From the IMG/VR virus record IMGVR_UViG_3300037483_000594, positions 96,001 through 160,000 of that record: DNA of 64,000 nucleotides. One strand, written 5' to 3'. The position numbers were made by a program, and so were the translations under genes. Source of the stretch: a virus. A model generated the notes under the pieces. It saw only the letters and a program-made list of their open reading frames with translations. It was not told where the DNA came from and did not search any database. This document shows positions 3,184 to 52,781 of this stretch, in pieces (position 1 is the stretch's first letter; each line of letters begins with the position of its first letter).

Positions 3184-3593
3184 CTTTCTACCTCTCTGCA
3201 GACGTAACAGGCCGACCAGTTTCGGCCTTCACCAATGCAGTCCCCGGCGTTGTAGTAGACGATGCCGGGCCGAACGAACTGGACGAGACCGGCTCGTCCG
3301 GAAACACAGCCATTGTCCATGCTTGGAGGAGGGGACGCCACCGGGCACTCTCCGGAGGGGGAGGCCCATACACAAGCCCCGGAGTACCCCCCGGAGCCGA
3401 AGTACGAAGACCCCTCCTCGACGTGCACCACGTCGCCGACGGCGACTTCGACGCGCGGGTGGCGCTCGTCCTTCTCCGCGTCCCACCGACGAGTCGTCCC
3501 GTGCAGGTTCCCCGGGGGAACAATATTCCCCTGGTGGAGCGACTCCTCGATCGCCTTCTTCCATTCGTCAAATGAGAATTTCGATTTCTTCAT
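3180..3593 (-). CDS. hypothetical protein
   Basis: ATG after a purine-rich RBS (GAGGAAAGGA); MKKSKFSFDEW... Confidence 0.45.
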   Translation of the reverse strand: MKKSKFSFDEWKKAIEESLHQGNIVPPGNLHGTTRRWDAEKDERHPRVEVAVGDVVHVEEGSSYFGSGGYSGACVWASPSGECPVASPPPSMDNGCVSGRAGLVQFVRPGIVYYNAGDCIGEGRNWSACYVCREVER

Positions 3594-3704
3594 TCTCTTA
3601 TCCTTTCCTCGTCGATGATGAGGCACAAAGCCAACCAGGGGACTCCTCGCTCATCGCGGCACGTGTGCCACGCGAGCGTCTCCCCGTCCTCTGTTGAGGA
3701 CGGG

Positions 3705-3926
3705 TCATACCACCCCCGCTCGCTGAGGCGAACGGGGGGAGAAGTCGACAGTCCCGTAGCGGGACGATCGACCATCCGCCTGCACGCCGAACGGCGTGTT
3801 GGCAACTAGCACCACCCCGTCCTCGACGGGGTGACGCCGAAACACTGAAACCCCGTCTGGGCCGCAGAGCAGCCCGGACAAGATCTCGCAGCCTTCGGGG
3901 GCTGCGACCAGCTTTGCTTTTAGCAT
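3705..3926 (-). CDS. hypothetical protein
   Basis: AGGGAGG RBS then ATG (MLKAKLVAAPEG...), directly after the tRNA-like element. Confidence 0.5.
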   Translation of the reverse strand: MLKAKLVAAPEGCEILSGLLCGPDGVSVFRRHPVEDGVVLVANTPFGVQADGRSSRYGTVDFSPRSPQRAGVV

Positions 3927-3937
3927 TGGGCCTCCCT

Positions 3938-3994
3938 TGGCCCCTGTGCCAGGGCTCAACCTGGCGCACCCGCCCTACTGAGGGCGGCACAGGG
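3938..3994 (-). ncRNA. mini tRNA-like element (57 nt)
   Basis: CCCTGTG/CACAGGG 7-bp stem + G + CCA; hairpin CCGCCCT-CAGT-AGGGCGG; T-like arm CCAGG-TTGAGC-CCTGG. Confidence 0.5.
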
Positions 3995-4000
3995 GGCACT

Positions 4001-4090
4001 TCACAACTGAAGGCTGCGTAGTCCTAACCAGGCTGCCCACGCGAGGGCGCCTGCCAGGACTGCGCAGCCAAACATTCGGAGCAGAATCAC
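4001..4090 (-). CDS. 29-aa hydrophobic peptide
   Basis: MILLRMFGCAVLAGALAWAAWLGLRSLQL; GTGA overlap with the upstream ORF. Confidence 0.35.
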   Translation of the reverse strand: MILLRMFGCAVLAGALAWAAWLGLRSLQL

Positions 4091-4185
4091 TGCTCCGGCT
4101 CCGGCTCCGGTGGGGGGTCTACCTCCACCGGAGTTTGCAACTCCTCCAGGATTGCGTCCTGGAGAAGCTGCTGGTCGATGGTCAC
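4087..4185 (-). CDS. 32-aa acidic peptide
   Basis: AAGGAGG RBS, GTG start; MTIDQQLLQDAILEELQTPVEVDPPPEPEPEQ. Confidence 0.4.
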   Translation of the reverse strand: MTIDQQLLQDAILEELQTPVEVDPPPEPEPEQ

Positions 4186-4218
4186 ATGCAACCTCCTTGT
4201 ATGTGCTCCTCTATCAGA

Positions 4219-4228
4219 TTCTTATAAC
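4219..4228 (-). promoter_or_regulatory. candidate island promoter GTTATAAGAA
   Basis: Identical 10-mer at 21718 and 22166, each heading a minus-strand transcript unit. Confidence 0.55.
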
Positions 4229-4280
4229 CGCACATTGAGCCAGCCTTTCAGGGCTGATAGAGTTGGCGTAAGGAGCACGA

Positions 4281-7200
4281 ATGGCACGTCTCGACCCAGG
4301 GGAAACTTTTGAAGCGCTGAAGGGGGAGGTCACCAAGGCGATAAAGTCGCAGTTTCCGCAAGTGGGGTCGCAGCACGTTCTTGAGCTGCGCGATGTCGTG
4401 GTGGACGACAACGTCTCGTCGGACGAGGTTTCCACACAGGCCGCAGCGAAGCTAGACGGCAAAACGTTTGGTGTGCCCATAAAAGCGTCTTTGGTCCTCA
4501 GGGACAAGGCGTCCGGAAAGGTGCTCGACGAGCGTGTGCAACGGGTAGGCACCCTTCCGAAGATCACCAGCCGCTACTCTTGGATAGTCCGGGGCACAGA
4601 GTACCAGGTAGACAACCAGTTCAGGCTGCGCCCGGGCGTGTACACGACGGTCCACAAAGACGGAGGGCTCGAGAGCTTCTTGAACTTCGAGGGTATCCCC
4701 CTTCACATAAAGTTTGACCCCAAGTCCAAGAAGTTTGCGGTGAAACACAAGACCGCTTCTCCGCCTCTGTACCCTGTGATGCGTGCACTGGGGTTTTCGG
4801 ATGAACAGTTGCGGGATGCCTGGGGCAAGGAGATCTTGGCGGCGAACCAAGTGGACACCTCCGGGCGCCCTCTGCAGGTGGACAAACGGGCCATGGACTT
4901 CGCCCGAAAGCTCGTCCCTGCCGCAGAGGTGAACACGCTGGCCGAGGCTTCACGAGCCATTAAGACGTACCTCGGTGCCAAGACGTTGCACCCGGACGTG
5001 ACCGAGAAGACGTTGGGAGCTCGGTACGACACCATCACCCCCGACGTCTTTCGAGCCTCAACGGAGCGGCTGCTTGGGATAGCGCGCGGAGAGCAAAAAC
5101 CGGACACCCGTGACGCCCTGCACTTCAAGGAGCTGAACGGTGTCGAGGACCTGTTGTCAGAGCGGCTCGCGAAGAACGCCAAGATGAACGCGCGCCGGAT
5201 AGCCAACAACCTCGACAAGAAGACGGAGATTCGCCAGATCGTTGGGACGGGGCACTTTAACAGCCAGCTACACGGCTTTTTTGCCGACTCAACATTGGCG
5301 TCGCTGGCCCAGCAGACGAACCCCCTCCGCATGATCGATGGGCACACCCGCACCACCATCATGGGAGAGGGTGGGATCAAAAGCGCGAACGCCGTCACCG
5401 ATGAGGCAAAGCTTGTGGACCCCAGTCACTTTGGGGTGCTCGACCCCCTCGTGACTCCCGAGAGCGGGAAGGCCGGGGTCTCGTTGCAGCTCGCCATCGG
5501 CGCCAAGAAGGACGGAAAGACACTCGCCGTTCCCCTCATCAACGTGAAGACCGGGAAGGTCGAGTTCGTCAACACGGCCAAGGTAAACGACGTTGTGGTG
5601 GCCATGCCCGACGCCGTTACCTTCTCGCAAGGAAAGTTGGTGGCCAAGGACGGCGGGTCCACTGTCCGGGCGAGTGTCAAGGACAACGAGTTCCGGGAGG
5701 TCCCTCTCCGGGAAGTGCAGTACGTGGCCCCCAAGGCTACCCAGATGTTCTCCTTGTCGTCGAACTTGGTGCCGTTCCTGGCGTCGAACTCTCCGAACCG
5801 GGCTTCCATGAGCGGGAGGCACCAGGAGCAGGCGATCAGCTTGAAGTACCGGGAGCCCCCCCTGGTGCGCTCGGCCCTTGGGGACAAGAGCTTTGGGGAG
5901 ATCCTGGGGCAGTTCGCCGCGCAGCACTCTCCTGTCTCCGGAGAGGTGGTGGCTGTGGAGCCTGGGCTGATGAAGATCAAAGGCCCTGACGGAGTGAAAG
6001 AGGTACAGCTCTACAACCACTACCCGCTCAACGACAAGAAAGGCCAGTTGCACTCCACCCCCTCCGTGAAGGTAGGGGACAAGGTCAAGGCCGGGCAGCT
6101 CATCGCTGACACGAACTTCAGCGCTGACGGAATCTACGCCCCCGGGAAAAACCTGCAGGTTGCCTACCTACCATGGGGCGGCCAAAGTGTTAGCGGGGAT
6201 ACGTACGTTTATTGGGTTGACTCGCAGGGCGGGCACTTTGGACCAATCGGTAATATGCCGGCGCAGGGGGAAGTGTACGCCAACGTTCTGGATTCAGAAT
6301 CTGTAGAGGGCCGGTTGCATCGTGTTCACAGTTTTATAGGTCATTACACCGCCGAGCCTATGTTTGAAATCAAGATGTTAGAGCCGTTTCGAGTTAAAGC
6401 AACCGCATGTCACAGTTTTATTACAATTGATGAGACAGGGGGCTTTGTAAACATTACACCGGCCAAGATGATACCGCGAAAAACACTCTTGCCTGTTGTA
6501 CAGCCGACGTTGCGCTTCAGTAGTCAAATAGGGCAGATGTTTTGTAAATCAAAAACTGCTGGTGGTATTTCTGTGTCATTTCCTATGGATAAAGACGCGG
6601 GGTACGTTTTTGGTGTTTACACAGCAGAGGGGTGCTCCCTGGGAGGAACTAGGGGGTGTAAAGGACTTAGTATCTCGGTTACTGAGGGGGACCTATTAGA
6701 GCGATTAGAAAGTATTTTAGACAAGTGGGGTGTTAGCCATTCACGACGTTTGCGTGGGGTAAACATACACAATTCCGCAGTCGGCCGCATTGTTACAGAC
6801 GCCTGCGGCTGTCTTGCGCAATTTAAAAAGATACCCGACTTGCTGTGGTCTCAACATCCAGATTTTATTGATGGATTTTTGGACGGGTACTGGAGTGGCG
6901 ACGGTACTTGTTCTGATAAGCAGTTTACTGCGTCGACTGTATCTCGAGAACTGGCGGAGGGGTTGATATTTTTACTTGCGGCACGAGGAGTTAAGGCGCG
7001 GTACAGAACGTACAAGATCCCAGGACATCAAGACCAAAACCTGATAAATGTTTACAGAGAAACACTTGATAAATTTCCAGCACTGAGTTCTGGTCGAAAA
7101 GAACTTCTTCGACAGGAGTTAATAGCCAAGGGTACTGAGCACGGGCGGGATCGAATTCCTATCCCCGAGGCGTATCGCGACGAAGTAAAAAAAGCGCTGC

Positions 7201-10200
7201 GGAGCGTAGGAAGAGCGCTGGGGGGCAGCCCTTACGCTGCACGTCGTGTTTTGAAGCAAGTGCGAGAGCTACTGCCAGAAACGGTACGTCGGTTTGTTGA
7301 TGCTCCGATTTGGTGGGAAGTAGTTGACACGGTCAAGGAAGTGGAGCCGGAGGAGTACGTTTACGATTTGGATATGCGGCCGTTCGGCAATTTTATTGTG
7401 GGGCCCGGTCTTGTTGTACACAACACGTACGAAGACGGGGTGGTGATAAGCGAAGACGCAGCCCAAAAGTTGACGTCCACCCACCTGTACAAGAGCAAGC
7501 TCTCGACGCGTGACGCGCGCGTCGAGCCTGCCAAGCGGTACAAGAGCATCTTTGGGGCTACGATCCCGGCGGAGCGCATGGCAGGCTTGGGGGAAGACGG
7601 GGTAGTGCGGGAAGGGACGATGGTCAAGCCCGGAGATGTTCTCGTGGCGGGCTCTGCAGACCGCGTGTTCACTACCGAAGAGCAGAAGCTGCGTGCGATC
7701 CAGAAGTCCCTCGTGCCCACGAAGCGAAACGCTGCGGTGACGTGGGACGCCGAACACCCAGGGAAGGTCGTGGCCGTGCACCGCGGAAAGAGCGGGGTGG
7801 AGGTGCATGTCGAAACCGAGGAGCCTGCGCAGGTGGGTGACAAGATCAGCTCACACCACGCCGCCAAGGGCATCATCTCCGCGGTCTTGCCGTCTGCGGA
7901 GATGCCCCAGCGCCCGGACGGGAGCCCGATCGACATCGTCATGAACCCGGTTGGCACCGCCGGGCGTCTTAACGTTGGGCAGATCCTGGAAACCGCCGCG
8001 GCCAAGGTCGCGGAGAAGACCGGCAAGCCGTTCATCATCAAAAACTTCGAGACCGAGGATAACCACGGTCTCGTCGCAAAAGCACTGAAGGAGCACGGGC
8101 TCTCCGACACCGAGAACCTGATTGACCCCACCACGGGGAACACCATTCCGGGCATCCTTACGGGGCCGCAGTACATCATCAAGCTGGAGCACCAGGTCGA
8201 CAAGAAGATGAGCTCGAGGGACCGCGGTGCCTACGACCGAAACCTTATTCCGAAGGGCGGCGGGCACGACGGAGGGCAGGCCTTCGGAGCTCTGGGGACC
8301 TACGCACTCCTGAGCCACGGGGCGCGCGGAAAGATCCAGGAGGCGCAGACGCTGCTCTCGGACAAGGGGCAGGGTGGGCTGAACGACGAGTTGTGGGGTG
8401 CTATCCAGTCGGGGGAGCTTATCCCGCCTCCGAAAGCCACGTTTGCCACCAAGAAGTTCGAGGGCTACCTTCGCGGGCTCGGGGTCAACGTCGAGCAGGA
8501 CGGTAACCGGCTCTCGTTGATGCCTGTCACTGACGCGCAGACCCTGGCGCTCTCGAGCGGTGAGCTGCAAGACGCCGGGCGTACCGTGATCGTCAAGAAC
8601 AACCAGCTTGTTCCGGAGAAGGGCGGGCTCTTCGACAAGCGGGCCACTGGCGGGCTGGACGGTCAGAAGTGGGGGCATATCACCCTGGCGAAGCCCATGC
8701 CCAACCCGCTGTTCGAGTCCGGGATAAGGAGCCTCACGGGACTCAAGACCACCGAGTACCAGCAGCTCATCTCCGGAGAGCTTGGGGTAAGCCAGAGCGG
8801 GGCACTGGTCCCCGCGGACACGCGCGGGGCCGAGACAGGGCCCTCGGCTGTGGTGAAGCTCCTCGACAAAGTGGACGTGAAACGCGCACTGCAAGAGGAA
8901 GAAGGCCGCATCGGCGGTCTTCGTGGCCAAAAGCAGAATGAGGTTCGGAAGAAGATAAAGTACCTCAGGGCGCTGGACCGTCTGAAGCTTTCTCCAGCGG
9001 ATGCCTATACCACAAGGCACGTGCCTATTCTGCCGCCATCAATGCGCCCTGTGGCGCTTACCGAAGACGGGAAGCTGCAAAACGACGACCTGAACTACCT
9101 TTACCGCGATCTCGCGGTGCTCAATGACCAGGTGAAGAAGATCCCCGCGGACATGCCCAAGTCTTTGGTGCAAGACAAAGAGGCCTACCTGTACGACAGT
9201 CTCCGCGCCCTCACCGGGCTTGGGGGTACGGTCAACGACAAGTACCCCGGGCTCCTTCACCGGATAGCTGGAAAGACCTCTCCCAAACAGGGGTTCTTCC
9301 AGAACGTGCTGATGAAGCGTAAGCAGGACCTCTCGGGGCGCTCGACTATCATCCCGGACCCCACCTTGTCCTTGGACGAGGTAGGGCTTCCCATCGACAT
9401 GGCGCGCGTCATCTACAAGCCCTTTGTGGTTCGGGAGATGAAAAACTCGCTTGGGCTCAGCCCCCTGGCCGCAAAGAAGCTGATCGACGAGGACGACCCG
9501 CTTGCCCGGAAGGCGCTCGAGCGCGTTGTTTCCGAACGCCCTATCATGCTCAAGCGGGACCCCGCCCTGCACAAACACAGCGTGCAGGGGTTCAAGCCCA
9601 AACTGATTAAAGGGAGCGCCATCAAAATCCCACCGCTGGTCACCAGTGGCTTCAACGCCGATTTTGACGGTGACCAGTGCATCGGTGCTGTTGTTTTGTT
9701 CCTTGAAAGAGATGTATTCAATTATGATATATGCTATTGGACACCAAGGAGGATTACTTTGACAGCGCGGATGCGAGAGCAGATTGGTTATTGTGATGCG
9801 GACGGAGAGTTTGTTGTCTGTGACCTATCGGAAGTGCCCCACGCGGAGGAGTGTGTAACGAAGGGGCACATTGACTATCATCCTGTGTCGGGGGTTAGCG
9901 TGCTCACTCTTGACCCGACGAAGGGGGCATGTTTCGCGGAGGTGACGGGGTGGTCTTATCATCGGCAACGCTCGGTGGAGATAGTCACTCTTGCTAGCGG
10001 GCGGCAGATCGTTACAGACGATGACCCAAGGGCTGTGTTTGGCGTGGATGCTTCGTCGTTGGAGTGGTGTCGGCGTCGTCCGCGTGAGAGTGCAGACCAG
10101 TTTGTGCCTGTTTTGGACGAAGTTCCTGCGTCCTTTACCGAGTTGACAGCGCTCGCGCTACCAAGAGACAAGTCCGGGCGGATGAAGCCAGAGGTGCTTC

Positions 10201-13200
10201 TTGACGCTAAGTTTGGTTACTTTCTGGGTTGTTTGGTGGGGGACGGCTGGGTCACGGGTGATGAGACACTGCGGTTCACATGTATGGCCAGCAGCTTTCC
10301 GGAGGTGCTTGGTACGTGGGAGCGGTCTGCGTCATGCCTTTTCTCAGAGAATCCGCACTTCAGCGAGCAGTACTGCTGTGAGGGGACCTTCGAGAACTCA
10401 AAGGGGACTACGCGCGCAACTATTTCTTCGGTAGCGTTGGCTACGTTTCTGCAGCCACTTATCGGTCATGGCGCGCGCAATAAGCACCTCCCTCCGTTTT
10501 TCTTGTCGGCCCCTGAATCTTTCCGTGTTGGTCTTTTGGCTGGGTTGATGGACACAGACGGCTCGATGTCATGGTCGATGGCAAAAGGCAAGGCGCAGTT
10601 TATGTGCAGTGTTAGCTCCACCAGCATAAGGCTGCTACAGGAAACTCAGCATCTTCTCCGCACGCTTGGAATCACCGCGAGTATCACCACTACCACCACG
10701 CCAAAGGGAGCTGCGTCATGGGTGCTGTCTATCTCTTCTGTGGGGTTGTACGAGCACAGGCGTAAACTTGCTCGACCGGCGCACAGTGGGAAACGCGCTG
10801 TGTGGGAGGAGTTCTGTGCTGGGGACGGCCCGGCTTCCGGAGGTGCTTTTTCACGGTACCGGCTCGTACCGCTACCTTCCAAGCTTGCTGCCAGCCTGCG
10901 GAAGATTGTCACGGTGAACGAGGACCGCAGCGTGTACATGACGCTGTCCAAGGCGATCGATCGGCAGTACATGTCGAAGCTGCTGGCCGAAAAGACTGTT
11001 CGGATGGTGAACGAACGTGGAGGGTGTGCACACCCCTTCTACGCGCGCTGGGCACGGCTGGTCGAAACTCCTGGGATGCACTTTGAGCGTGTTGTGGACG
11101 TGCAGCAGACGAACATTCTAGAGGACGGGTATGACCTAACCGTCCCGGGCTACGAGACCTTTATGGCAGTAGACGGCGTTGTGCTGTCCAACACAATGTC
11201 GGCTTACGTGCCGGTGACCGAAAAGGCTGTTCAGGAAGCGTGGCAGATGATGCCGTCGAACAACCTGTTCAGCCCGGCTTCCGGGAAGCTGATGTACGCA
11301 CCCACCAACGAGATGCAGGTAGGGCTGTACATGGCCACCGAGGTCGGGAAGGACACGGACAAGAAGTTTGCTTCCCTCTCGGAGCTGCGACGGGCAGTGA
11401 ACTCCGGAAAGCTCCACGGGACCGATGTGGTCACGTTGAACGGGCAGCGCACCACCTTCCACCGCGCGGAACTCGTAGACGCACTTCCGGAGCAGGCGCG
11501 GGAGGGGAACAAGCACCTCCTCACGGACCTTGGGTACAGGCTGACCAAGGCCAAGCAAGGCGCGCTGTTCGAGTCGATGGCGCACTCTGGGGCCGACGGC
11601 AAAGAGTTCGGGGCGGCGATAAACGCCGTCAAGGACCTTGGGAACAAGGTGGTGAGCACAGGGGGCTTCTCGTTCGGGCTCAAAGACATCGCTCCTCAGA
11701 AGGCGCTGCGGGCCGCAGCCTTTGCCGATGCGGACAAGGCTGTCGCACAACTGCGTGGTGTCGAACGTGAGGAGAAGATCGTCGACCTCTACTCCAAGGC
11801 GACCACCGCGCTCGAGAAGGACGTGCAGCAGATGGCGCAAGAACGCGCGTCTGAGTCTGCACTGGCCAAGCTGCAGGTAGCTGCCGGGATCAAGGGGAAC
11901 GGTTACAGGCAGCTCGTGGCGGCCCCCGGGCTCTTCGTGGACGGGCTAGGGAGGGTAGTGCCCTCTCCGGTCAAGCGCTCTTACGCGGAGGGGCTGAAGA
12001 GCAGCGACTACTACGTCAGCACCTCTGGGGCGCGGAAGGGCATAATCCAGAAGGTACAGAGCGTGCGCGACCCAGGGTACCTCACCAAGCTCATGGTGAA
12101 CTCCACCATTTCCGAGATGGTGGACAGGGAGGACTGCGGCACCCATTACGGTATCTCCCTGTCCGTGGACGAACCGGATGTGCAAGGGCGCTTCACGGTG
12201 GTTGACCACAAGCTCAGCAACGGCTCGGTCATCCCCGCCGGCACCTTGCTCGACAGCTCTATTGTGACCCGGATACGCAACGACAAGCCCGGGGCCAAAC
12301 TGGTGGTGCGTTCTCCCATGCGATGCACTCACACCACTGGGCTCTGCGCAAAGTGCGCCGGGCTGCAGGCGGACGGGAAGCTTCCGGAAAAGGGCACCAA
12401 CATTGGTATCTTGGCTGCCCAGGCCCTTGGAGAACGTGGAACACAGCTAGCTCTGAAGTCCTTTCACTGTTCGCACGCCAAGACGTTGGTGGTCGTCTGC
12501 AGGCGGGATGACCAAACAGTCAGGGCTATGACACTCGAGGAACTCTACGAGAAGGCGGTCAACCCTGTGGCGGAGGGTTGGCTGATCTACGACGGGGCGT
12601 GGCAGGAGCTCTCCGCGGTGAGCAGGCACCGCCCAACCGACCGTATGATGTTTGTGAGCTGCTCCAGTGTGGCGACGGTCTGCCAGGACAATCATCCCCT
12701 GGCGACCTACGAAAACAGGGTTTCTTGCGAGAAGTGTGGTTACCACCGGCTGAAGAAACCAGGGGCGAACGCTTCCATAAAAAACGGCAAGTTGTACTGC
12801 CCAAAGTGCTTTACCTACCAATACCCTATGGTCCCGGCGGAGGGGGAGGTGAAGTTCCTTGCACCTCAAGAGGTGGAGTGCAAGCGTGTGTACTTGCAGC
12901 GCTGTCTCGACCTCCCGGTTTCTTGTGTTAGAAAAACACCGTGGCTTGATCCGTACCTCGCTGGTATGTACGTGGCAGAGGGGAGTCTGGGGTATGTAGC
13001 AACTGCCTCGGGGGTGAAGAAACCGTACTTCGTCACTATCAGTCAGAACCGCGGGGCCGTGCGCGACAAACTGGAGCAGAAGCTGCCCCCTGAGTGGTGT
13101 GCCAAGCTTGGGGGGCGTGGCGTTGTGATTAACAGAGTCGCGCTCGGTGAGCGACTTGAAACAACGTTCGGCCGCTACTCGCGAAACGTGGCGCTGCCCT

Positions 13201-14387
13201 CCGACTTCCTAGCCTACGAACAGGGGTGGCTCGCCGAGTTCTTGTGTGGGCTGATCGATGGGGACGGGACGATCAAGCCTGACAAGGACGGGGCGCAGCG
13301 TATCGCGATCGACACGACAAGTTTTGCGCTGGCGCAACAGGTCGTGTTTATCTGTTCTCTGTTGAACATCGTGCCTTCTGTCCTGGCTACGTCACACCGA
13401 AAGCTGACCAGACATCAGGGTTTCCGTGTTGTGCTGCGGGTGACAGCGGCAGTGAAAGACTTGTTGAAAGAATCCATAAAGGTCCAGAGTGTGGAGAAAC
13501 TGAGCCCGGACCAGGACTTTCAGAGAACAGGGCGCACGCTGCTCTCGACCAAAAAAGAGGTGTTGTACACAGACGAGTACGTCTACGACGTCACGACCTC
13601 TTCCGGTACGTTTCTCGCGGGTGGGGTGCTCAGTCACAACAGCGGGGGTGTTTACTCCCCTACGGACATGACCTCTTTGGCTGGGAGCGGGATCGAGAGA
13701 GCCATGACGCTCCTTCAGCTTCCGAAGACGGTGAAGGGCTCGGCCACCCTTTCCACGGTCGGGGGTGTGGTGCGAAAGGTCGAGAGGGACGCTGCCGGCG
13801 GGGTCAACATTTTTGTGGACGACGGAAAGGGCCTGCGAAAGCACTACGTGCCCGCGGGTCGCAAGCTCCTGGGCTCGGTTGGAGGGAAGGTGCGCCCCGG
13901 AGACCCCCTTTCTTCAGGGCCGGTGAACCCGCACGACCTGTTGCCGCTTGCCGGGGTAGCACGCACCCAGGGGTTCCTGGCAAACGAGCTGCACAGCATC
14001 TACGGGAAAGAGGGCGTCAGGCGTCGGCACTCCGAGGTTCTGGTGAGGGCTGTGAGCTCGGTGGCGAGGGTAGAGGACCCCGGAGATCACGCGACTCTTC
14101 TTCCGGGGGACTACGTGGACACGAACGCCACGGCGCAGTGGAACGACAAGCACAGGGGCAAGGCGCCTGTGCAGTACACTCCCGTGGTGCGTGGAGTCGA
14201 GCAGCTTCCGCTTGACGTGAGCGAGGACTGGTTGGCCCGCCTGAACCATGAGCGCGGAAGAAAGACCATTATCGAGGCTGCGCAACAAAACTGGTCCACG
14301 GACCTGCACGGTCGGCACCCTATTCCCGGACTTATCTATGGTGTAGAATTCGGAAAAGGAACGAAAGACAAACCCTGGCACTACTAG
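4281..14387 (+). CDS. fused beta-beta' DNA-directed RNA polymerase precursor with three inteins (~2058 aa spliced)
   Basis: Beta motifs (QFRLRPGVY, QTNPL, PSHFG..DP..TPES, YEDGVVIS, GDK..HHAAKG, GGQAFG) followed by beta' motifs (WGHITL, PILPPSMRP, RDPALHK, NADFDGD, GARKG, GYLT, RSPMRC..CAKC, GERGTQL..FH). Confidence 0.95.
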   Translation: MARLDPGETFEALKGEVTKAIKSQFPQVGSQHVLELRDVVVDDNVSSDEVSTQAAAKLDGKTFGVPIKASLVLRDKASGKVLDERVQRVGTLPKITSRYSWIVRGTEYQVDNQFRLRPGVYTTVHKDGGLESFLNFEGIPLHIKFDPKSKKFAVKHKTASPPLYPVMRALGFSDEQLRDAWGKEILAANQVDTSGRPLQVDKRAMDFARKLVPAAEVNTLAEASRAIKTYLGAKTLHPDVTEKTLGARYDTITPDVFRASTERLLGIARGEQKPDTRDALHFKELNGVEDLLSERLAKNAKMNARRIANNLDKKTEIRQIVGTGHFNSQLHGFFADSTLASLAQQTNPLRMIDGHTRTTIMGEGGIKSANAVTDEAKLVDPSHFGVLDPLVTPESGKAGVSLQLAIGAKKDGKTLAVPLINVKTGKVEFVNTAKVNDVVVAMPDAVTFSQGKLVAKDGGSTVRASVKDNEFREVPLREVQYVAPKATQMFSLSSNLVPFLASNSPNRASMSGRHQEQAISLKYREPPLVRSALGDKSFGEILGQFAAQHSPVSGEVVAVEPGLMKIKGPDGVKEVQLYNHYPLNDKKGQLHSTPSVKVGDKVKAGQLIADTNFSADGIYAPGKNLQVAYLPWGGQSVSGDTYVYWVDSQGGHFGPIGNMPAQGEVYANVLDSESVEGRLHRVHSFIGHYTAEPMFEIKMLEPFRVKATACHSFITIDETGGFVNITPAKMIPRKTLLPVVQPTLRFSSQIGQMFCKSKTAGGISVSFPMDKDAGYVFGVYTAEGCSLGGTRGCKGLSISVTEGDLLERLESILDKWGVSHSRRLRGVNIHNSAVGRIVTDACGCLAQFKKIPDLLWSQHPDFIDGFLDGYWSGDGTCSDKQFTASTVSRELAEGLIFLLAARGVKARYRTYKIPGHQDQNLINVYRETLDKFPALSSGRKELLRQELIAKGTEHGRDRIPIPEAYRDEVKKALRSVGRALGGSPYAARRVLKQVRELLPETVRRFVDAPIWWEVVDTVKEVEPEEYVYDLDMRPFGNFIVGPGLVVHNTYEDGVVISEDAAQKLTSTHLYKSKLSTRDARVEPAKRYKSIFGATIPAERMAGLGEDGVVREGTMVKPGDVLVAGSADRVFTTEEQKLRAIQKSLVPTKRNAAVTWDAEHPGKVVAVHRGKSGVEVHVETEEPAQVGDKISSHHAAKGIISAVLPSAEMPQRPDGSPIDIVMNPVGTAGRLNVGQILETAAAKVAEKTGKPFIIKNFETEDNHGLVAKALKEHGLSDTENLIDPTTGNTIPGILTGPQYIIKLEHQVDKKMSSRDRGAYDRNLIPKGGGHDGGQAFGALGTYALLSHGARGKIQEAQTLLSDKGQGGLNDELWGAIQSGELIPPPKATFATKKFEGYLRGLGVNVEQDGNRLSLMPVTDAQTLALSSGELQDAGRTVIVKNNQLVPEKGGLFDKRATGGLDGQKWGHITLAKPMPNPLFESGIRSLTGLKTTEYQQLISGELGVSQSGALVPADTRGAETGPSAVVKLLDKVDVKRALQEEEGRIGGLRGQKQNEVRKKIKYLRALDRLKLSPADAYTTRHVPILPPSMRPVALTEDGKLQNDDLNYLYRDLAVLNDQVKKIPADMPKSLVQDKEAYLYDSLRALTGLGGTVNDKYPGLLHRIAGKTSPKQGFFQNVLMKRKQDLSGRSTIIPDPTLSLDEVGLPIDMARVIYKPFVVREMKNSLGLSPLAAKKLIDEDDPLARKALERVVSERPIMLKRDPALHKHSVQGFKPKLIKGSAIKIPPLVTSGFNADFDGDQCIGAVVLFLERDVFNYDICYWTPRRITLTARMREQIGYCDADGEFVVCDLSEVPHAEECVTKGHIDYHPVSGVSVLTLDPTKGACFAEVTGWSYHRQRSVEIVTLASGRQIVTDDDPRAVFGVDASSLEWCRRRPRESADQFVPVLDEVPASFTELTALALPRDKSGRMKPEVLLDAKFGYFLGCLVGDGWVTGDETLRFTCMASSFPEVLGTWERSASCLFSENPHFSEQYCCEGTFENSKGTTRATISSVALATFLQPLIGHGARNKHLPPFFLSAPESFRVGLLAGLMDTDGSMSWSMAKGKAQFMCSVSSTSIRLLQETQHLLRTLGITASITTTTTPKGAASWVLSISSVGLYEHRRKLARPAHSGKRAVWEEFCAGDGPASGGAFSRYRLVPLPSKLAASLRKIVTVNEDRSVYMTLSKAIDRQYMSKLLAEKTVRMVNERGGCAHPFYARWARLVETPGMHFERVVDVQQTNILEDGYDLTVPGYETFMAVDGVVLSNTMSAYVPVTEKAVQEAWQMMPSNNLFSPASGKLMYAPTNEMQVGLYMATEVGKDTDKKFASLSELRRAVNSGKLHGTDVVTLNGQRTTFHRAELVDALPEQAREGNKHLLTDLGYRLTKAKQGALFESMAHSGADGKEFGAAINAVKDLGNKVVSTGGFSFGLKDIAPQKALRAAAFADADKAVAQLRGVEREEKIVDLYSKATTALEKDVQQMAQERASESALAKLQVAAGIKGNGYRQLVAAPGLFVDGLGRVVPSPVKRSYAEGLKSSDYYVSTSGARKGIIQKVQSVRDPGYLTKLMVNSTISEMVDREDCGTHYGISLSVDEPDVQGRFTVVDHKLSNGSVIPAGTLLDSSIVTRIRNDKPGAKLVVRSPMRCTHTTGLCAKCAGLQADGKLPEKGTNIGILAAQALGERGTQLALKSFHCSHAKTLVVVCRRDDQTVRAMTLEELYEKAVNPVAEGWLIYDGAWQELSAVSRHRPTDRMMFVSCSSVATVCQDNHPLATYENRVSCEKCGYHRLKKPGANASIKNGKLYCPKCFTYQYPMVPAEGEVKFLAPQEVECKRVYLQRCLDLPVSCVRKTPWLDPYLAGMYVAEGSLGYVATASGVKKPYFVTISQNRGAVRDKLEQKLPPEWCAKLGGRGVVINRVALGERLETTFGRYSRNVALPSDFLAYEQGWLAEFLCGLIDGDGTIKPDKDGAQRIAIDTTSFALAQQVVFICSLLNIVPSVLATSHRKLTRHQGFRVVLRVTAAVKDLLKESIKVQSVEKLSPDQDFQRTGRTLLSTKKEVLYTDEYVYDVTTSSGTFLAGGVLSHNSGGVYSPTDMTSLAGSGIERAMTLLQLPKTVKGSATLSTVGGVVRKVERDAAGGVNIFVDDGKGLRKHYVPAGRKLLGSVGGKVRPGDPLSSGPVNPHDLLPLAGVARTQGFLANELHSIYGKEGVRRRHSEVLVRAVSSVARVEDPGDHATLLPGDYVDTNATAQWNDKHRGKAPVQYTPVVRGVEQLPLDVSEDWLARLNHERGRKTIIEAAQQNWSTDLHGRHPIPGLIYGVEFGKGTKDKPWHY
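6186..7424 (+). mobile_element. intein 1 with LAGLIDADG endonuclease (413 aa)
   Basis: PWGGQ|SVSGDT...TACH...GVYTAEG...FLDGYWSGDG...VYDL...VVHN|TYEDG; AT-richer than flanks. Confidence 0.92.
9675..11192 (+). mobile_element. intein 2 with LAGLIDADG endonuclease (atypical, ~506 aa)
   Basis: NADFDGD|QCIGAV...FLGCLVGDG...LLAGLMDTDG...GYDLTVPGYETF...VLSN|TMSAYVP. Confidence 0.88.
12468..13640 (+). mobile_element. intein 3 with LAGLIDADG endonuclease and Zn-finger insert (391 aa)
   Basis: TQLALKSFH|CSHAKT...LAGMYVAEG...LCGLIDGDG...VYDVTT...SHN|SGG. Confidence 0.92.
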
Positions 14388-19760: not shown

Positions 19761-19975
19761 TGCCATTCGTCTCGGAGAGTCAGCGCCGAAAGTTCTACGC
19801 CATGAAAGAGCGCGGAGAGGTCAGCGCAAAGGTCGTCAAGGAGTTCGAGAAGGGCTCCCCGGAGGACCTCCCGGAACGTGTGAAGACCGCTGCCTACTGC
19901 GAAGCCTACGGGCTCGAGCTGCTCAAGGGGGCAGCCCCCCGCTGGAAACAGCTTCTCCGTGGCAAGGAGATCTGA
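19757..19975 (+). CDS. small basic phage protein
   Basis: AAGGAGG RBS; MPFVSESQRRKFYAM..RGE..LPERVKTAA. Confidence 0.65.
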   Translation: MMPFVSESQRRKFYAMKERGEVSAKVVKEFEKGSPEDLPERVKTAAYCEAYGLELLKGAAPRWKQLLRGKEI

Positions 19976-20499
19976 TGCGCGCGCTTCTGGTGCAGGGGGG
20001 AGCACTCGCTGACACGCTCCTGAAGCTTGCGGAGAAGCCTCTCCGTGAGCGCGTAGAGGTGTACGCTCTCAAAGACGGAAAGGTCCTGGCCGGCATCTAT
20101 CCGGACGGGTCAGTGGGTGTGCCTGGGGGAGGGGTGTCCTCCGGGGAGTCCCCCGAGCACGCGGCAAAGCGGGAGTACAAGGAAGAGGCAGGCCTGACCG
20201 TCAAGAACCTGCAGCCCCTTCCCGTGCCCCCACTTGTTGAAAAGTGGGAGAAGCGGAAGGACCTCACCGACAAGGAGAAGGAGCGGCGCAAGGAGTTCTC
20301 CGGGTCGCGCACTCACTTCTACATAGCCGACCTTTCCGGAAAAGGCGGGAAGGCGGTGGACCCCTCCGCGTTGAAGAGGCTCGTTCCGCGTTCGGTAGCG
20401 GCTCTTGTCGACAAGCTGCAAGAGCAAGCCGACTCCGGGAAGAAGCGGGACAAGGTACGCCTCAAGGTACTCGAGACTGTCCAGGAGTTAACCAGCTAA
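19975..20499 (+). CDS. Nudix hydrolase
   Basis: Complete Nudix box GGGVSSGESPEHAAKREYKEEAGL. Confidence 0.9.
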   Translation: MRALLVQGGALADTLLKLAEKPLRERVEVYALKDGKVLAGIYPDGSVGVPGGGVSSGESPEHAAKREYKEEAGLTVKNLQPLPVPPLVEKWEKRKDLTDKEKERRKEFSGSRTHFYIADLSGKGGKAVDPSALKRLVPRSVAALVDKLQEQADSGKKRDKVRLKVLETVQELTS

Positions 20500-20523
20500 A
20501 AAAGTGGGGGTTGCCCCCCACCG
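20494..20523 (-). terminator. intrinsic terminator
   Basis: GTGGGGG-GCAA-CCCCCAC-TTTTTTAGCT on the minus strand. Confidence 0.75.
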
Positions 20524-20529
20524 TGGCCG

Positions 20530-20760
20530 CTACTGCGGCCGAACCTCCTCCTCGCCGACGATGGTAGCGGTTCCGGTGCGGTCAAACCGCACCGTGGGGA
20601 TGCCGTCGTCGACTCCCTCGACGACGCCCACGTCCCCCGGTTCCGCGTGGATGTACGCGCCCTGGGGGAACTGGGCGTTGGGGTCTCCGGGGAGGCGACC
20701 GTTCTCGGTCACCTGCGCGGTGGCCATCAATCGCTGGCCCTTCTCAAACGGGTACGTCAT
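20530..20760 (-). CDS. small hypothetical protein (SH3-like beta fold possible)
   Basis: AAAGGAAAGG RBS; MTYPFEKGQRLMATAQV...GDVGVVEGVDDGIPTVRF. Confidence 0.6.
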   Translation of the reverse strand: MTYPFEKGQRLMATAQVTENGRLPGDPNAQFPQGAYIHAEPGDVGVVEGVDDGIPTVRFDRTGTATIVGEEEVRPQ

Positions 20761-20772
20761 GCCTTTCCTTTC

Positions 20773-20803
20773 TAGCAAAAAGTGATGGGAGTTTCCCACC
20801 ACT
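20773..20803 (-). terminator. intrinsic terminator after the tRNA-like element
   Basis: AGTGGTGGG-AAAC-TCCCATCACT-TTTTGCTA. Confidence 0.6.
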
Positions 20804-20805
20804 AG

Positions 20806-20874
20806 AGCCGAGACCTGGGCTTGCACCAGGATCTCCTCCTCAACGGAGGCGGGTTACCTTAACCCCATCTCGGC
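20806..20874 (-). ncRNA. tRNA-like cloverleaf with a 5-nt anticodon loop
   Basis: GCCGAGA/TCTCGGC acceptor; D arm GGGT-TAAGGTA-ACCC; CCTCC-GTTGA-GGAGG; T arm CCTGG-TGCAAGC-CCAGG; no encoded CCA. Confidence 0.7.
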
Positions 20875-20904
20875 GGTGGGTGCAGCGCTGGGCGCTGCGC
20901 CCCT

Positions 20905-21222
20905 CTAGTACTTGGACAGAACCTGCCCCACGGTCCAGCGGGGGTCGTGGGACACGGCGACTACGTACCCCTGGCACTTGGGGTCGTAGATCGCCGTTGC
21001 GCCGAACCGGTGCACCAAGAAGTGCACCAGTACGGCGCAGACAGGGAGGCTCATGGGCCCGCTTATGCGGACCAAGCCCCCGCCGATCTCGAGACCCTTC
21101 AAGGTCTCGTTCTCGAGCTCCGCCACGATCTGGGCGTTCGTGGCGGTCTCCCCGAAACCCACCGTCAGGTCGGTTACCTGATCGGTGGAGTGCGGCTCCC
21201 GCCGCACATGGAAAAGTGACAT
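20905..21222 (-). CDS. csx3: Csx3 (Crn3)-like cyclic oligoadenylate ring nuclease
   Basis: 105 aa; VGFGE..GGGLVRISGPMSLPVCAVLVHFLVHRF..IYDPK..GYVVAVSHDP.W.VG matches the Csx3 pattern; AAGGAGGTG RBS. Confidence 0.8.
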   Translation of the reverse strand: MSLFHVRREPHSTDQVTDLTVGFGETATNAQIVAELENETLKGLEIGGGLVRISGPMSLPVCAVLVHFLVHRFGATAIYDPKCQGYVVAVSHDPRWTVGQVLSKY

Positions 21223-21233
21223 TGTCACCTCCT

Positions 21234-21289
21234 TGGCGCAGGTGAGGGGGAGTCGAACCCCCTGACGCCGAAGCGTCTCCAACACCTGC
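21234..21289 (-). ncRNA. mini tRNA-like element (56 nt)
   Basis: GCAGGTG/CACCTGC + G + CCA; canonical T arm GGGGG-TTCGACT-CCCCC; a single GACGC-TTCG-GCGTC hairpin replaces the D and anticodon arms. Confidence 0.7.
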
Positions 21290-21486
21290 CCCAGGGTCAC
21301 GCCTTACCTGGATGGCGCTTCACTTTTTGTTTCCATCCAGAGTGTGAAGTCTCTGGACCGGGCTACTGCTCCACCAAAGAGAGGGCCGGGACAAAGGGCG
21401 CCGCTTCGCGCCGATTCGGACACCTCCTGCGGACCATGCGCTGCCCGTACCACGCAGAAGGCTGCGAGGGTTTCTTTGTACTCAGA

Positions 21487-21606: not shown

Positions 21607-21619
21607 GCTACACCTCCAG

Positions 21620-21690
21620 TGCCCCTGGCAGGAATCGAACCTGCTCCTCCTGGGTGTAAACCAGGCGCTCGTCCTTCGAGCTACAGGGGC
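21620..21690 (-). tRNA. tRNA-Val(TAC)
   Basis: GCCCCTG/CAGGGGC acceptor, GCTC/GAGC D stem, CCTGG-TTTACAC-CCAGG, GCAGG-TTCGATT-CCTGC, discriminator A; CCA not encoded. Confidence 0.9.
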
Positions 21691-21732: not shown

Positions 21733-22146
21733 TCACTGAAATGTATCAACAATCTCCTTGTTGTGTTGGTAGATGGTATCCAGCAGGGCGTCGTACCGTT
21801 GGAGAAGGGCGCTGTCCCACGTGGTGATGAAGAAGCCCACCTCTCCGCCCGGGAAGGACACCCTGTACTCTCCGTCACAGTAGGCAGCGCAGCGAACGGG
21901 CTCGAGGGCCTCCCAGGCCTTCTCGAGCAGCGCCTCGGGCTCTGGGCCCACAAGGCGCTCGAGGGAGGGAAGGTTGTTGTCAACCACCCGTTGGAGCAGC
22001 CGGCCCACCTGCCGCATCGCCACGGCCTCTTCGAGGCTGATCTCTACCGGGGCTGCCCCCGGCAGCCGCAGGCTGACCTCGTAGACCCCTCGGGCCACTC
22101 CACCCCACCTCGGAGGGTCCATCAGTTTCCGGATAAGGGCTTTCAT
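21733..22146 (-). CDS. hypothetical protein
   Basis: GGAGG RBS, preceded by TGTTATAAGAA. Confidence 0.65.
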   Translation of the reverse strand: MKALIRKLMDPPRWGGVARGVYEVSLRLPGAAPVEISLEEAVAMRQVGRLLQRVVDNNLPSLERLVGPEPEALLEKAWEALEPVRCAAYCDGEYRVSFPGGEVGFFITTWDSALLQRYDALLDTIYQHNKEIVDTFQ

Positions 22147-22243: not shown

Positions 22244-24040
22244 ATGGACGACCTTTACAAGCGCGCGCAGGACAGTGTCAGCACCGGGTTGTCGGACGAA
22301 GAGACCGAGGCCTTGCTGGACGCGGAGATGGAAGAGGAGGAGCAGGACAGGTACGACGCTCTTCTGGAGGGGGAGGTGGCGGTGGGGAAGGCCCCGGTGG
22401 TACCGGTGTCGCTGAGCAAGTACACCGAGTTCAGTGTGCGGATAAACACCGGGTACGACATCGAACCTTTCTCGTTCAAAGGCAGGGAGCACTTCCGGAA
22501 GGTGTACGACACACCTGACAAGGACGTCCTAGTGCTAGCCAGTCGGCAGTCGGAGAAGTCGACGTTCCTGGGGAACAAGATCTTGGCGTTGTCGGCTATC
22601 ATCCCCGGGTTTCAGACGCTGTACGTTTCTTCTTCGGCAACGCAGTCCAAGGTCTTCTCGGAAGACCGGATACGCGAGCCTATCCTGAACTCTCCGCGAC
22701 TCCAGCAGAGTGTTGACCCGCGTGCCCAGAGTGTTTTTTCCAAGAGGTTTCGTAACAGCTCCATGATCAGGTTGCGCTACGCCTACCTGACAGCGGACCG
22801 AGCTCGTGGTGTGAAGTCAGACGGGATCTTTATCGACGAGATTCAGCACATCTTGCCGTCCAACATCCCTATTATCGAGCAGTGTGCGTTCCACTCGATT
22901 CACAAGTACCGCACGTACTCCGGGACCCCGTTGACCCTCGACAACACCATCGCTGTCCTGTGGGACTCCCACTCCACGCAGAACGAGTGGATCGTCCCCT
23001 GCCGGGCCTGTGGCCAGGAGAAGAAGCGGGACACCTGGTGGTGGAACGTCCTGGGTCCCGGGAACATCGGCAAGGAAGGACTGGTGTGCGAGCACTGTCA
23101 CCGTCCCATCAACGTGCGCGACCCCGATGCTCAGTGGGCGTCGATGCAGCCGGTGAACGCGGACAACGCTCTGCGGGTCAACTTCCGCGGTTTCCGGATT
23201 ACGCAGTTCATGGTCCCGTCGCTGAACTGGCGGAAAGACATCCTGGAGAAGAGGGAGGAGTACTCCACAGCGCAGTTCAACAACGAGGTGTGTGGGCTGA
23301 GCTACGACTCCGGGAGCCGGCCTATTTCCAAGCAGCAGCTTATCCGCGCCTCACGTGCGGACGTGGACATGTCCGAGATCGAGAAGAACGTGGCCCGGTG
23401 CACCGGAGGGGTGTTCGCTGGGGTCGACTGGGGCCAGGACACGGAGAACTCCTTTACCGTGCTCACCCTGGGCGGGTACATGACCCACGGCTTCCAGATC
23501 TTTTTTGCCCACCGGTTCGTGGGGGCCGACTGTGACCCCGATGTCCAGCGCGAGAAGGTTGCCAAGCTGCTGGGCGCCGTCCACTTCCGGGTGTGCGGAG
23601 CGGACTACGGCGGCGGCTTCGGGCGTAACGACTGGCTGATGCGCAAGTTCGGAATGAAAAAGTTTGTGCGGTTTCAGTACGCCCCCAACCCCGTGCGGAA
23701 GATCGTGTGGAACCCCAAGCTCCTGCGGTTTGTGCTCCACCGCTCGGAGGTGATGGGCGACTTTTTTAGCGCCTTAAAGGAGCATAGGATCAGCCTTCCG
23801 AACTGGAAACAGTTTTCCGAACCACACGGCCGGGACATCCGCAACATCTTCACTGAGTTCAACACCCAGCGCCTTCTCATGCAGTACAAGCACACCCATG
23901 GCAAAACCGACGACACCTTCCACTCCATCATCTACTGCGTCCTGGGGAGCATGCTCGTGAAACCCCGCCCTGACATCCTGATCCCCCTCAAGGAAGGGAA
24001 CGTCAGCTTTGACCGTGGCGGCCTAGACCTCGCTGCCTAG
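22244..24040 (+). CDS. terL: terminase large subunit
   Basis: Walker A variant ASRQSEKST, Walker B GIFIDEIQ, YSGTP coupling motif, CxxC..CxxC, nuclease GVDWG and DDTFHS. Confidence 0.9.
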   Translation: MDDLYKRAQDSVSTGLSDEETEALLDAEMEEEEQDRYDALLEGEVAVGKAPVVPVSLSKYTEFSVRINTGYDIEPFSFKGREHFRKVYDTPDKDVLVLASRQSEKSTFLGNKILALSAIIPGFQTLYVSSSATQSKVFSEDRIREPILNSPRLQQSVDPRAQSVFSKRFRNSSMIRLRYAYLTADRARGVKSDGIFIDEIQHILPSNIPIIEQCAFHSIHKYRTYSGTPLTLDNTIAVLWDSHSTQNEWIVPCRACGQEKKRDTWWWNVLGPGNIGKEGLVCEHCHRPINVRDPDAQWASMQPVNADNALRVNFRGFRITQFMVPSLNWRKDILEKREEYSTAQFNNEVCGLSYDSGSRPISKQQLIRASRADVDMSEIEKNVARCTGGVFAGVDWGQDTENSFTVLTLGGYMTHGFQIFFAHRFVGADCDPDVQREKVAKLLGAVHFRVCGADYGGGFGRNDWLMRKFGMKKFVRFQYAPNPVRKIVWNPKLLRFVLHRSEVMGDFFSALKEHRISLPNWKQFSEPHGRDIRNIFTEFNTQRLLMQYKHTHGKTDDTFHSIIYCVLGSMLVKPRPDILIPLKEGNVSFDRGGLDLAA

Positions 24041-33371: not shown

Positions 33372-34496
33372 ATGTTGGACAGTAGGACTGCGCAGCTCAA
33401 CAACGCCTTCATGGAGAAGGTGGCCTCGGCCCCTGACAAGCTGGCGCGAGCAACTTCCTCGACGATCGAAGACCACATGCGGGAAGCCGCGTTCGTGCGC
33501 TCGATCCTCACGTTCAAGGACGTGAGCCCGGACGACCCGTTCATCAAGAACAGCACCCACACGGACACCCTGGTGGCGGTGGTCGGGATTCAGCCTGACT
33601 CTCGCGCCATGGTCGTCGACTTTCGTGGGCGGCCTGACGCACAGCTCGTGTCCGGACAGCGCGTGGAGGTCGGGTTCTTCACGATCTCCTCACAGCTCTT
33701 CCAGGCCTACGAGATCGAGCTCTTGGCCTACGACGAGTCGATCACCAAGCGGATCGAAGAGCAGAGCGCCCTGGACATCGAGGAGATCGAGGACCGGGAG
33801 TGGATCATCCACACCGACGCGGCCGTCCAGGCCATGCAGACCGAGTTCAACGGTGGGGCGGTCACCTCGCTGCACGAGACCACCATCACCGCCGGGACCG
33901 TCCGGGAGTACTCGGTGGCCAAGAGTGCGTGGGCGCGTGTGGACACCAACAACAACGCGTTCAAGTGGCCCACCCTCAAGCAGGACCTGGTGCGCGGGCA
34001 ACAGATGATGGTGGAGCGTCGTCTGCGGGCAGAGACCGTGCTGCTCCCGGACACCAACTACCTCGACCTGTTCCTGTGGACGGTCGACGAGACCGGGCAG
34101 CTCATCCCCAGCGAGACCGCCACCGACGGATGGAAGTCCGAGAAGGTGGTCGGGCTGAAGATGTTGCGGTCGATCAAGCACGACATCCTGCGCCCAGGGA
34201 ACGTGTACTTCTACCCCGCGGAGAAGTACTTGGGCGTGGCGTTCAGGCTGCAGAAGCTGCAGTTCTGGATCGACAAGGAGCAGGACCTCATCGAGTGGAG
34301 GTGCTGGGAGATCATCGCCATGGCGTTGATCAACATCGGTGCCCCCACCAAGATCGAGACCTACTCCGGGGATGCCACCACCCTCGACGCGAACGCTATC
34401 GCTGCCAACGTGCAGCCGGTGGCCGAGTCGGCAGTGGGCATCACCAACAACCGCGTCGAAGACGACCTCATCTTCCCCCAGATCAAGTTCTACTAG
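33372..34496 (+). CDS. major capsid protein
   Basis: 374 aa, strongly biased codon usage, AAGGAG RBS; HK97/encapsulin-like segments (REAAFVRSIL, IEEIEDREW); position after protease and scaffold. Confidence 0.8.
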   Translation: MLDSRTAQLNNAFMEKVASAPDKLARATSSTIEDHMREAAFVRSILTFKDVSPDDPFIKNSTHTDTLVAVVGIQPDSRAMVVDFRGRPDAQLVSGQRVEVGFFTISSQLFQAYEIELLAYDESITKRIEEQSALDIEEIEDREWIIHTDAAVQAMQTEFNGGAVTSLHETTITAGTVREYSVAKSAWARVDTNNNAFKWPTLKQDLVRGQQMMVERRLRAETVLLPDTNYLDLFLWTVDETGQLIPSETATDGWKSEKVVGLKMLRSIKHDILRPGNVYFYPAEKYLGVAFRLQKLQFWIDKEQDLIEWRCWEIIAMALINIGAPTKIETYSGDATTLDANAIAANVQPVAESAVGITNNRVEDDLIFPQIKFY

Positions 34497-52106: not shown

Positions 52107-52331
52107 ACATTCTAACCTCGGCGCTGCTTGATAGGGGCCTGGCCTGTATCGCTGACGGAGGGTCTGCACACAGGTACTTCATCCGGGCGTTCGGCCCAGG
52201 GAGCCCCGATTACATGTACCCCCACGAGGTCCGAAGGCTGGTGCGTGGAGCGGAGGCCGTGCTCAAGGGTGTCCCTGCTAGCGGGGTGTGTAGCGAAGGG
52301 CGAGCGTCCTTTTTCGCAGCAGGAGGGCCCT

Positions 52332-52772
52332 ATGCCAAAGCTTCCTGACGAACGGTGTGGTGTCACCCACAAGTTTTCGATCGCTGGGCACGAGGGGTAC
52401 CTCACCGTCAACACCTTTGACGACGGCACCCCCGGAGAGATCTTCATCGTGATGGCAAAGGTGGGGTCCTCCCTGTCCGGGTTCGTCGACAGCTTTGCCA
52501 TGGCCACCAGCATGCTCCTGCAGAGCGGGACCCCCCTGCAAGAGCTGGTCGACAAGTTCTCGTACACGCGCTTCGAGCCCGCGGGGTACACCACCAACAG
52601 CAGTATCCCGCAGGCGACCTCCGTGCTCGACTACGTGTTCCGGTGGTTGGCCCAACGGTTCTTGGAGCCTTGCCTCGAGCCAAAAGAGTCAGAGTCGGCA
52701 CCCCCCTGCCCCGTCTGTGGCACGCTGTTGCTCCGGGCAGGGGACTCGTTCACGTGTCCAACCTGCAGATAG
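52332..52772 (+). CDS. stand-alone TSCPD domain (class II ribonucleotide reductase C-terminal part)
   Basis: LPDER.GVTHKFSIAGHEGYLTV..DGTPGEIFI.MAK.GS..RFEPAG..ATSVLDYVFRWL; CPVC..CPTC. Confidence 0.85.
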   Translation: MPKLPDERCGVTHKFSIAGHEGYLTVNTFDDGTPGEIFIVMAKVGSSLSGFVDSFAMATSMLLQSGTPLQELVDKFSYTRFEPAGYTTNSSIPQATSVLDYVFRWLAQRFLEPCLEPKESESAPPCPVCGTLLLRAGDSFTCPTCR

Positions 52773-52781
52773 GAGCGAAAA

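Follow-up and report, generated by a model that had tools for sequence, protein, structure and literature searches.

This report concerns a phage gene at 20905..21222 (minus strand, stop codon included) of a 64,000-nt window, which spans bases 96001-160000 of the 170,135-bp IMG/VR record IMGVR_UViG_3300037483_000594. The gene is csx3/crn3-like, and its 105-aa product, P0001, has the Csx3 fold and belongs to the Cas_csx3 family. We consider P0001 to be probably a viral ring nuclease of cyclic tetra-adenylate (cA4) that blunts type III CRISPR signalling. As a ring nuclease or as a sponge, it is either way most likely a type III anti-CRISPR. Crn3/Csx3 has not previously been reported in phages by the published phage surveys.

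The original prediction, made from the letters of the window, had already read the gene as a candidate anti-CRISPR. This reading is supported in silico by a hidden Markov model (HMM) match, by the fold of Archaeoglobus fulgidus Csx3 (AfCsx3), by the lack of a type III system in the phage itself and by viral relatives adjoining AcrIII-1 and SAVED genes. In cells, the subfamily of P0001 is linked to type III loci.

The gene is stand-alone and well equipped for translation, as predicted. Its frame is intact, its ATG lies at 21220-21222 on the minus strand and the Shine-Dalgarno sequence AAGGAGGTGA (21225..21234, minus strand, read from the sequence) places a GGAGG core 5 nt upstream of the ATG. 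A GTG at 21300 would give a 131-aa form, which is unnecessary because the homologues start at the same methionine, M1 being nearly invariant. The GC content at third codon positions (GC3) is 0.86, typical for the genes of this phage genome.

The family match was obtained with Pfam PF09620 Cas_csx3, to which P0001 scores 31.1 bits (gathering score 21, E 2.2e-7); a six-frame search of the genome with the same profile gives 30.8 bits. Among 1.84 billion representatives, an exhaustive phmmer search returned 226 relatives at E<=1e-3, the best of them 47-52% identical. Together with the Pfam match, this speaks against a chance resemblance. A word-indexed homologue search returned P0001 alone. The closest named relative is Csx3 WP_341531926.1 on the Nostoc sp. 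UHCC 0302 plasmid NZ_CP151101.1, with 46% identity.

Fused forms also occur in the subfamily (P0005, P0013, P0020, P0082, P0006/P0030). They comprise tandem Csx3 proteins of ~235 aa, an FGE-sulfatase-Csx3 protein of 406 aa, a 371-aa protein with a weak, below-cut-off GNAT match N-terminal to its Csx3-like stretch, and forms of ~440 aa with Csx3 at the N-terminus and an unassigned remainder.

Structural comparison points the same way. A profile built from 76 single-domain relatives of P0001 (A1) matches the AfCsx3 structures in the PDB at E about 1e-5. The profile was needed here, the sole PDB match of a single-sequence phmmer search with P0001 being CHMP4b, which we judged spurious. The AlphaFold model made from the alignment is confident, with a predicted local distance difference test score (pLDDT) of 96 and a predicted TM-score (pTM) of 0.86, and supersedes a poor single-sequence AF2 model (pLDDT 57). 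In a Foldseek search with this model, the top ten PDB matches are all AfCsx3. The modelled fold is thus that of Csx3, a CARF-related, STAS-like alpha/beta fold, and not that of DUF1874.

The source is a real virus genome without a cognate type III system. The record has a CheckV completeness of 94%, and the window carries the terminase large subunit (TerL) at 22244-24040, 1 kb from csx3 and with ~25% identity to annotated TerLs, and the major head protein at 33372-34493. A Terminase_6C family search was uninformative, as it overlooked even this TerL. The predicted absence of cas genes and of an array from the window extends to the entire 170,135-bp record, in which we found no CRISPR-like spaced repeats and no match in searches for Csm1, the Cas10 palm domain, repeat-associated mysterious proteins (RAMPs) and SAVED. 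Control genomes gave matches in every cas search. For lack of Cas10, RAMP and SAVED, we reject a cyclic oligoadenylate (cOA) system of the phage's own. PF08960 (AcrIII-1/DUF1874) has no match anywhere in the record.

The gene recurs in other viruses. Alignment-based peptide patterns found relatives of 43-57% identity on nine other IMG/VR contigs, a lower bound set by the short patterns used, and two further pattern sets added none. A direct protein pattern scan of IMG/VR found nothing. The viral nature of the nine contigs rests on the IMG/VR classification and a few PHROG matches. None of the nine has Cas10 or RAMPs, and three of them (L005, L006 and L007) form a group of close relatives. Synteny is lacking in the flanks of the nine, which share no TerL or flanking gene with this phage and mostly none with each other. 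The contigs are therefore not kin of this phage, and csx3 behaves as a mobile accessory gene.

Two of these viral contigs carry csx3 together with genes indicative of cOA signalling. On L009 (IMGVR_UViG_3300041964_000083), a 154-kb contig that is 98% complete, an island at 5965-8049 consists of the Csx3 open reading frame (ORF), an AcrIII-1/DUF1874 homologue and an HD_4 phosphohydrolase. The AcrIII-1 homologue begins 119 nt after the Csx3 ORF and matches PF08960 with 52 bits and AFV3-109 with E 1.9e-9. On L002 (IMGVR_UViG_3300005573_000055), four genes stand in a row at 3311-6252: those for a radical SAM protein, a stand-alone SAVED-family protein of 164 aa and an unknown 121-aa product, and the Csx3-like gene. 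The SAVED gene lies 1.1 kb upstream of Csx3, and an AcrIII-1 homologue is about 18 kb off. Overall, of the 10 viral records with Csx3 (this phage and the nine contigs), 2 also have AcrIII-1, as against 36 of 28,114 phages in a published survey.

Both contigs also show unusual sequence features. The Csx3 ORF of L009 has 226 aa, with an unexplained C-terminal extension of 126 aa for which an Atlas search gave nothing usable. The SAVED protein of L002 contains an SGP...HH...FDP stretch similar to the core motifs of Csx3.

Other viral collections yielded no counterpart of P0001. There was no tblastn match to it among GenBank phages (50,697 records), no PHROGs family for it and no similar fold in BFVD. 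Crn3 was in the HMM panel with which a published survey examined 28,114 phage genomes; the survey reported AcrIII-1, Csx20 and Csx16, with no Crn3 phage hit. Other ring nucleases are known from viruses: AcrIII-2 is a viral SAVED ring nuclease (PMC12751052), and phages also carry homologues of Crn4b, Csx16 and Csx20 (PMC12830947, PMC12409355) and, rarely, Csx15.

The residues of the putative active site are conserved in part. AfCsx3 needs H57, H60 and H80 on one dimer face and D69 and R71 on the other, and binds cA4 by S44-G45-R46 and I49 (PMC7371418). Conserved in P0001 are H67 (Af H57), H92 (Af H80), D80-P81 (Af D69-P70), S54-G55 (Af S44-G45) and L59 (Af I49). Af R71 is replaced conservatively by K82 and Af R46 by P56. 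Af H60 is not conserved, its counterpart being V70, and the second histidine of P0001, H71, aligns with Af H61. Among the Csx3-pattern residues named in the original prediction, YDPK (residues 79-82) and VVAVSH (residues 87-92) are present, but the histidine pair was given with the wrong spacing and is in fact H67-x3-H71 (HxxxH).

These departures from AfCsx3 are not private to the phage. Seven residues (G55, H67, H71, D80, P81, H92 and G99) are invariant in the phage copy, the viral copies, the type III-adjacent copies and the AfCsx3 fragment. The motif search screened 153 subfamily sequences and matched its pattern in 107, leaving 46 unmatched. Of the 107, 96 have HxxxH and 93 have HxxxH together with DPK. 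Both motifs are invariant among the copies residing in type III loci, and nearly all subfamily members, type III-adjacent ones included, have lysine in place of Af R71. HxxxH and DPK are therefore features of the subfamily and not a decay of the phage copy.

By analogy with AfCsx3, dimers of P0001 would stack head to tail around cA4. One face would bear D80 and K82, and the opposite face the histidine cluster of H67, H71 and H92, presumably with Mn2+. The sandwiched cA4 would then be cut to linear di-adenylate. Early in the infection of a host bearing type III immunity, the cA4 made by Cas10 may in this way be removed or sequestered before the CARF-type effectors switch on.

The signal might instead be held rather than cut. 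P0001 would then be a sponge for cA4 or other cyclic oligoadenylates, its head-to-tail filaments trapping the signal with little or no turnover, still as an anti-CRISPR; we regard this as unlikely. AfCsx3 does sandwich cA4 between dimers in a pseudo-filament (PMC7371418), the Csx3-type domain of Cat1 is a filament-forming cA4 sensor, and Af H60 and R71 are not kept letter for letter in P0001. Moreover, the two Csx3 viral contigs with AcrIII-1 already have a fast cA4 nuclease, next to which a second plain one would be redundant. What speaks against the sponge is that the whole subfamily keeps D80, H67, H71 and H92 without exception, also in the cellular copies linked to type III, which are expected to be enzymes.

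The cellular relatives place the ring-nuclease reading in its context. A metagenome scan found 113 relatives, and the neighbour counts use the best 80 loci. Beside the subfamily csx3, RAMPs recur in 9 loci, an HD_4 protein in 7 and a WYL protein in 6; Cas10 falls into two neighbour clusters, seen in 6 and 4 loci. The association with type III extends to no fewer than 11 metagenome loci and also to one Nostoc plasmid. Type III-D is exemplified by L053, where Csx10 (400 bits), Csx7 and a CARF protein are encoded, and L041 has a Csm1-type Cas10 and Csm5. On the Nostoc plasmid, csx3 stands directly upstream of a second Csx3 and cas10-csm2-5, with TIGR03985 (WYL) and HD genes divergent. To judge from these loci, P0001 belongs to a Csx3 lineage truly linked to type III, in type III-A and III-D loci.

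An HD-domain protein of ~190-240 aa (HD_4) accompanies Csx3 both in type III loci and on viral contigs. This HD_4/HD companion is seen in L009, L010, L030, L038, L053, L080 and L083 and on the Nostoc plasmid (L093:9917-10489). It may be a partner that degrades linear products.

The family has also a second, non-CRISPR setting. A pair of MoxR (bpMoxR PF20030) and vWA genes lies 1-3.5 kb from Csx3 relatives in four distinct loci (L012, L042/L043, L057 and L078/L079), all without cas genes. A scan of genome contigs gave only two Csx3 loci, both in metagenome-assembled genomes of Patescibacteria; one has the MoxR-vWA pair and neither has cas genes.

Relatives of this kind, away from cas genes and beside MoxR-vWA pairs and HD_4 proteins, are among the grounds for a target outside type III. 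P0001 would then act on other cyclic nucleotides, such as products of cyclic oligonucleotide-based antiphage signalling systems (CBASS), or on RNA 3' ends, perhaps in connection with flanking tRNA-like elements. AfCsx3 was initially described as an Mn-dependent RNA deadenylase (PMC7371418), Csx15 shows that ring nucleases are able to cross over to CBASS signals, and the phage csx3 is set between a tRNA-Val, a tRNA-like element and hairpins. We give this possibility slightly less credence than the sponge. The family is characterised as cleaving cA4, it cuts RNA slowly and with questionable relevance (PMC7371418), and the nameable viral neighbours, AcrIII-1 and SAVED, indicate cOA signalling.

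The RNA elements in question belong to a short minus-strand cluster that is flanked by plus-strand structural genes. Its order is a 137-aa ORF, tRNA-Val, the tRNA-like element, csx3, a terminator-like hairpin, a 76-aa ORF and a second terminator. The first ORF (21733..22146, minus strand, from the ORF list) has no Pfam, PHROG or Atlas match. The tRNA-Val(TAC) at 21619..21690 (minus strand), upstream of csx3, was called by ARAGORN and scores 64.2 bits with the Rfam tRNA model. The tRNA-like element at 21238..21289 (minus strand) abuts the ribosome-binding site of csx3 on the upstream side. It has an acceptor stem, a T arm with GGTTCGA and one extra hairpin and lacks an anticodon arm; a relaxed Rfam search matched it to the tRNA-Sec model with 28.5 bits (E 0.0027), below the gathering score.

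On the 3' side of csx3, a hairpin-prone, GC-rich stretch of ~100 nt (20826-20905, minus strand) separates the stop codon from the terminator-like hairpin and has no Rfam match at E<=1. This hairpin with its T-run (20781..20803, minus strand), ~100 nt 3' of the stop codon, has a 10-bp stem and a TTTT tail and is a pattern match only, from a consensus scan. The 76-aa ORF (20530..20760, minus strand, from the ORF list) starts with ATG at 20760, has no Pfam or PHROG match and is followed by a second terminator-like hairpin at 20503-20522.

Among the immediate neighbours of csx3, the Pfam and PHROGs searches matched only one Nudix hydrolase. It is encoded at 19975-20499 (plus strand), adjoining the cluster, with a Pfam score of 42.3 bits, and its top PHROG match is the Nudix-like part of a 'portal protein' family. 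Farther away in the window, a TSCPD-domain protein (Pfam 45.9 bits) and then a DHH phosphoesterase are encoded at 52128-53789 (plus strand). The latter matches phrog_4771 with E 7.5e-26 and Pfam DHH with 26.6, slightly below the cut-off. DHH enzymes break down short oligoribonucleotides, and a link of this one to ring-nuclease products is conceivable. A single ORF of 3368 aa occupies 4281-14387 (plus strand).

The origin of the gene was addressed by a maximum-likelihood tree of 76 Csx3 domains, built from few alignment columns. P0001 groups with three viral copies (L002, L003 and L004) and three short contigs in a supported set (ultrafast bootstrap 97 and SH-like approximate likelihood ratio test 87, the bootstrap being not fully converged). 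The set holds no type III-adjacent copy, and such copies sit in other clades of the tree. The tree fits a virus-borne Csx3 clade, as known for AcrIII-1 versus Crn2, and gives no direction of transfer. The original prediction had spoken of a captured host off-switch used as an anti-CRISPR. Its anti-CRISPR part is supported by the HMM match, the fold and the cas-free record, but host capture is not shown and stays an inference because P0001 groups with viral copies, outside the CRISPR-linked clades.

A functionless passenger, recently acquired and drifting, would suit the very long branch of P0001 and its single copy in this phage lineage, with no relative above 52% identity among the 1.84 billion representatives, but is very improbable given the intact frame, the strong ribosome-binding site, the genome-typical GC3 and the retention of all near-invariant family positions except P26T and L83C.

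Several points weigh against P0001 being a cA4 ring nuclease that serves as a type III anti-CRISPR. P0001 does not reach the equivalog cut-off of NCBIfam TIGR02579 (24.1 vs 55.4 bits), and by this measure it is a divergent branch of the Csx3 family, below equivalog level. Its branch in the tree amounts to 1.8 changes per site. Three residues important in AfCsx3 differ (H60 to V70, R71 to K82 and R46 to P56), although these differences also occur in CRISPR-linked relatives. The Pfam, PHROGs and Atlas searches found no recognisable anti-defence genes among the csx3 neighbours of this phage. A recent preprint holds that ring nucleases of the filament-forming kind have a slow turnover and find little use in viruses, and Csx3-type domains may be non-catalytic cA4 sensors, as in Cat1. 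Finally, the reading presupposes a host with type III immunity.

Compared with the characterised Crn3/Csx3 of A. fulgidus (AF_1864; PDB 3WZG/3WZI/6YUD/6VJG; Athukoralage et al. 2020, PMC7371418), P0001 is ~22% identical, has the HxxxH spacing and the changes of R71 to K and R46 to P, and is encoded by a phage without a CRISPR locus. The Nostoc plasmid Csx3 (WP_341531926.1) is much closer, being of the same subfamily and length and sharing the motifs NGPxSLPV, HxxxH, DPK and SH. Cellular copies of this cyanobacterial type stand immediately upstream of cas10 with WYL (TIGR03985) and HD genes, whereas no such genes accompany the phage copy.

With AcrIII-1 (DUF1874, whose cellular counterpart is Crn2), P0001 shares that it is a small viral protein with the same proposed role of destroying cA4, and in both cases one family is divided between viral and CRISPR-linked copies. 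Their folds are unrelated, and AcrIII-1 is a metal-independent dimer in contrast to the Mn-dependent dimer-of-dimers active site of Csx3 (PMC7371418). AcrIII-2 (PMC12751052) resembles Csx3 in that both stack head to tail around cA4. AcrIII-2, Crn4b, Csx16 and Csx20 likewise have folds known from cellular ring nucleases or sensors, occur in phages as rare stand-alone genes and are read as anti-CRISPRs; they are protein families other than Csx3.

Viral ring nucleases are the main known viral means against cyclic-oligoadenylate signalling. Reported from viruses to date are AcrIII-1, AcrIII-2 (vSAVED) and Crn4b, along with a few homologues of Csx16, Csx20 and Csx15; Crn3/Csx3 is the classic cellular family for which no viral counterpart has been reported. 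Both the viral ring-nuclease concept and the protein family are known, and what is new is their combination and the hint of a viral clade. The sequences now at hand can serve to study an Mn-dependent shared-active-site enzyme as an anti-CRISPR and the function of the HxxxH/DPK variant. They also raise the question of why there are phages with two or three proteins directed at cA4.

In summary, a near-complete 170-kb phage and nine viral contigs with Csx3 suggest that viruses recruited this fold too. Tentatively, and with the odds still against it in our estimation, the virus-borne clade of this phage, three IMG/VR phages of 136-155 kb and short contigs could be a further metal-dependent, filament-forming type III anti-CRISPR family, perhaps sponge and nuclease in one, that may complement AcrIII-1 without duplicating it. 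If true, such a clade would contradict a recently voiced view by which ring nucleases that form filaments do not suit viruses.
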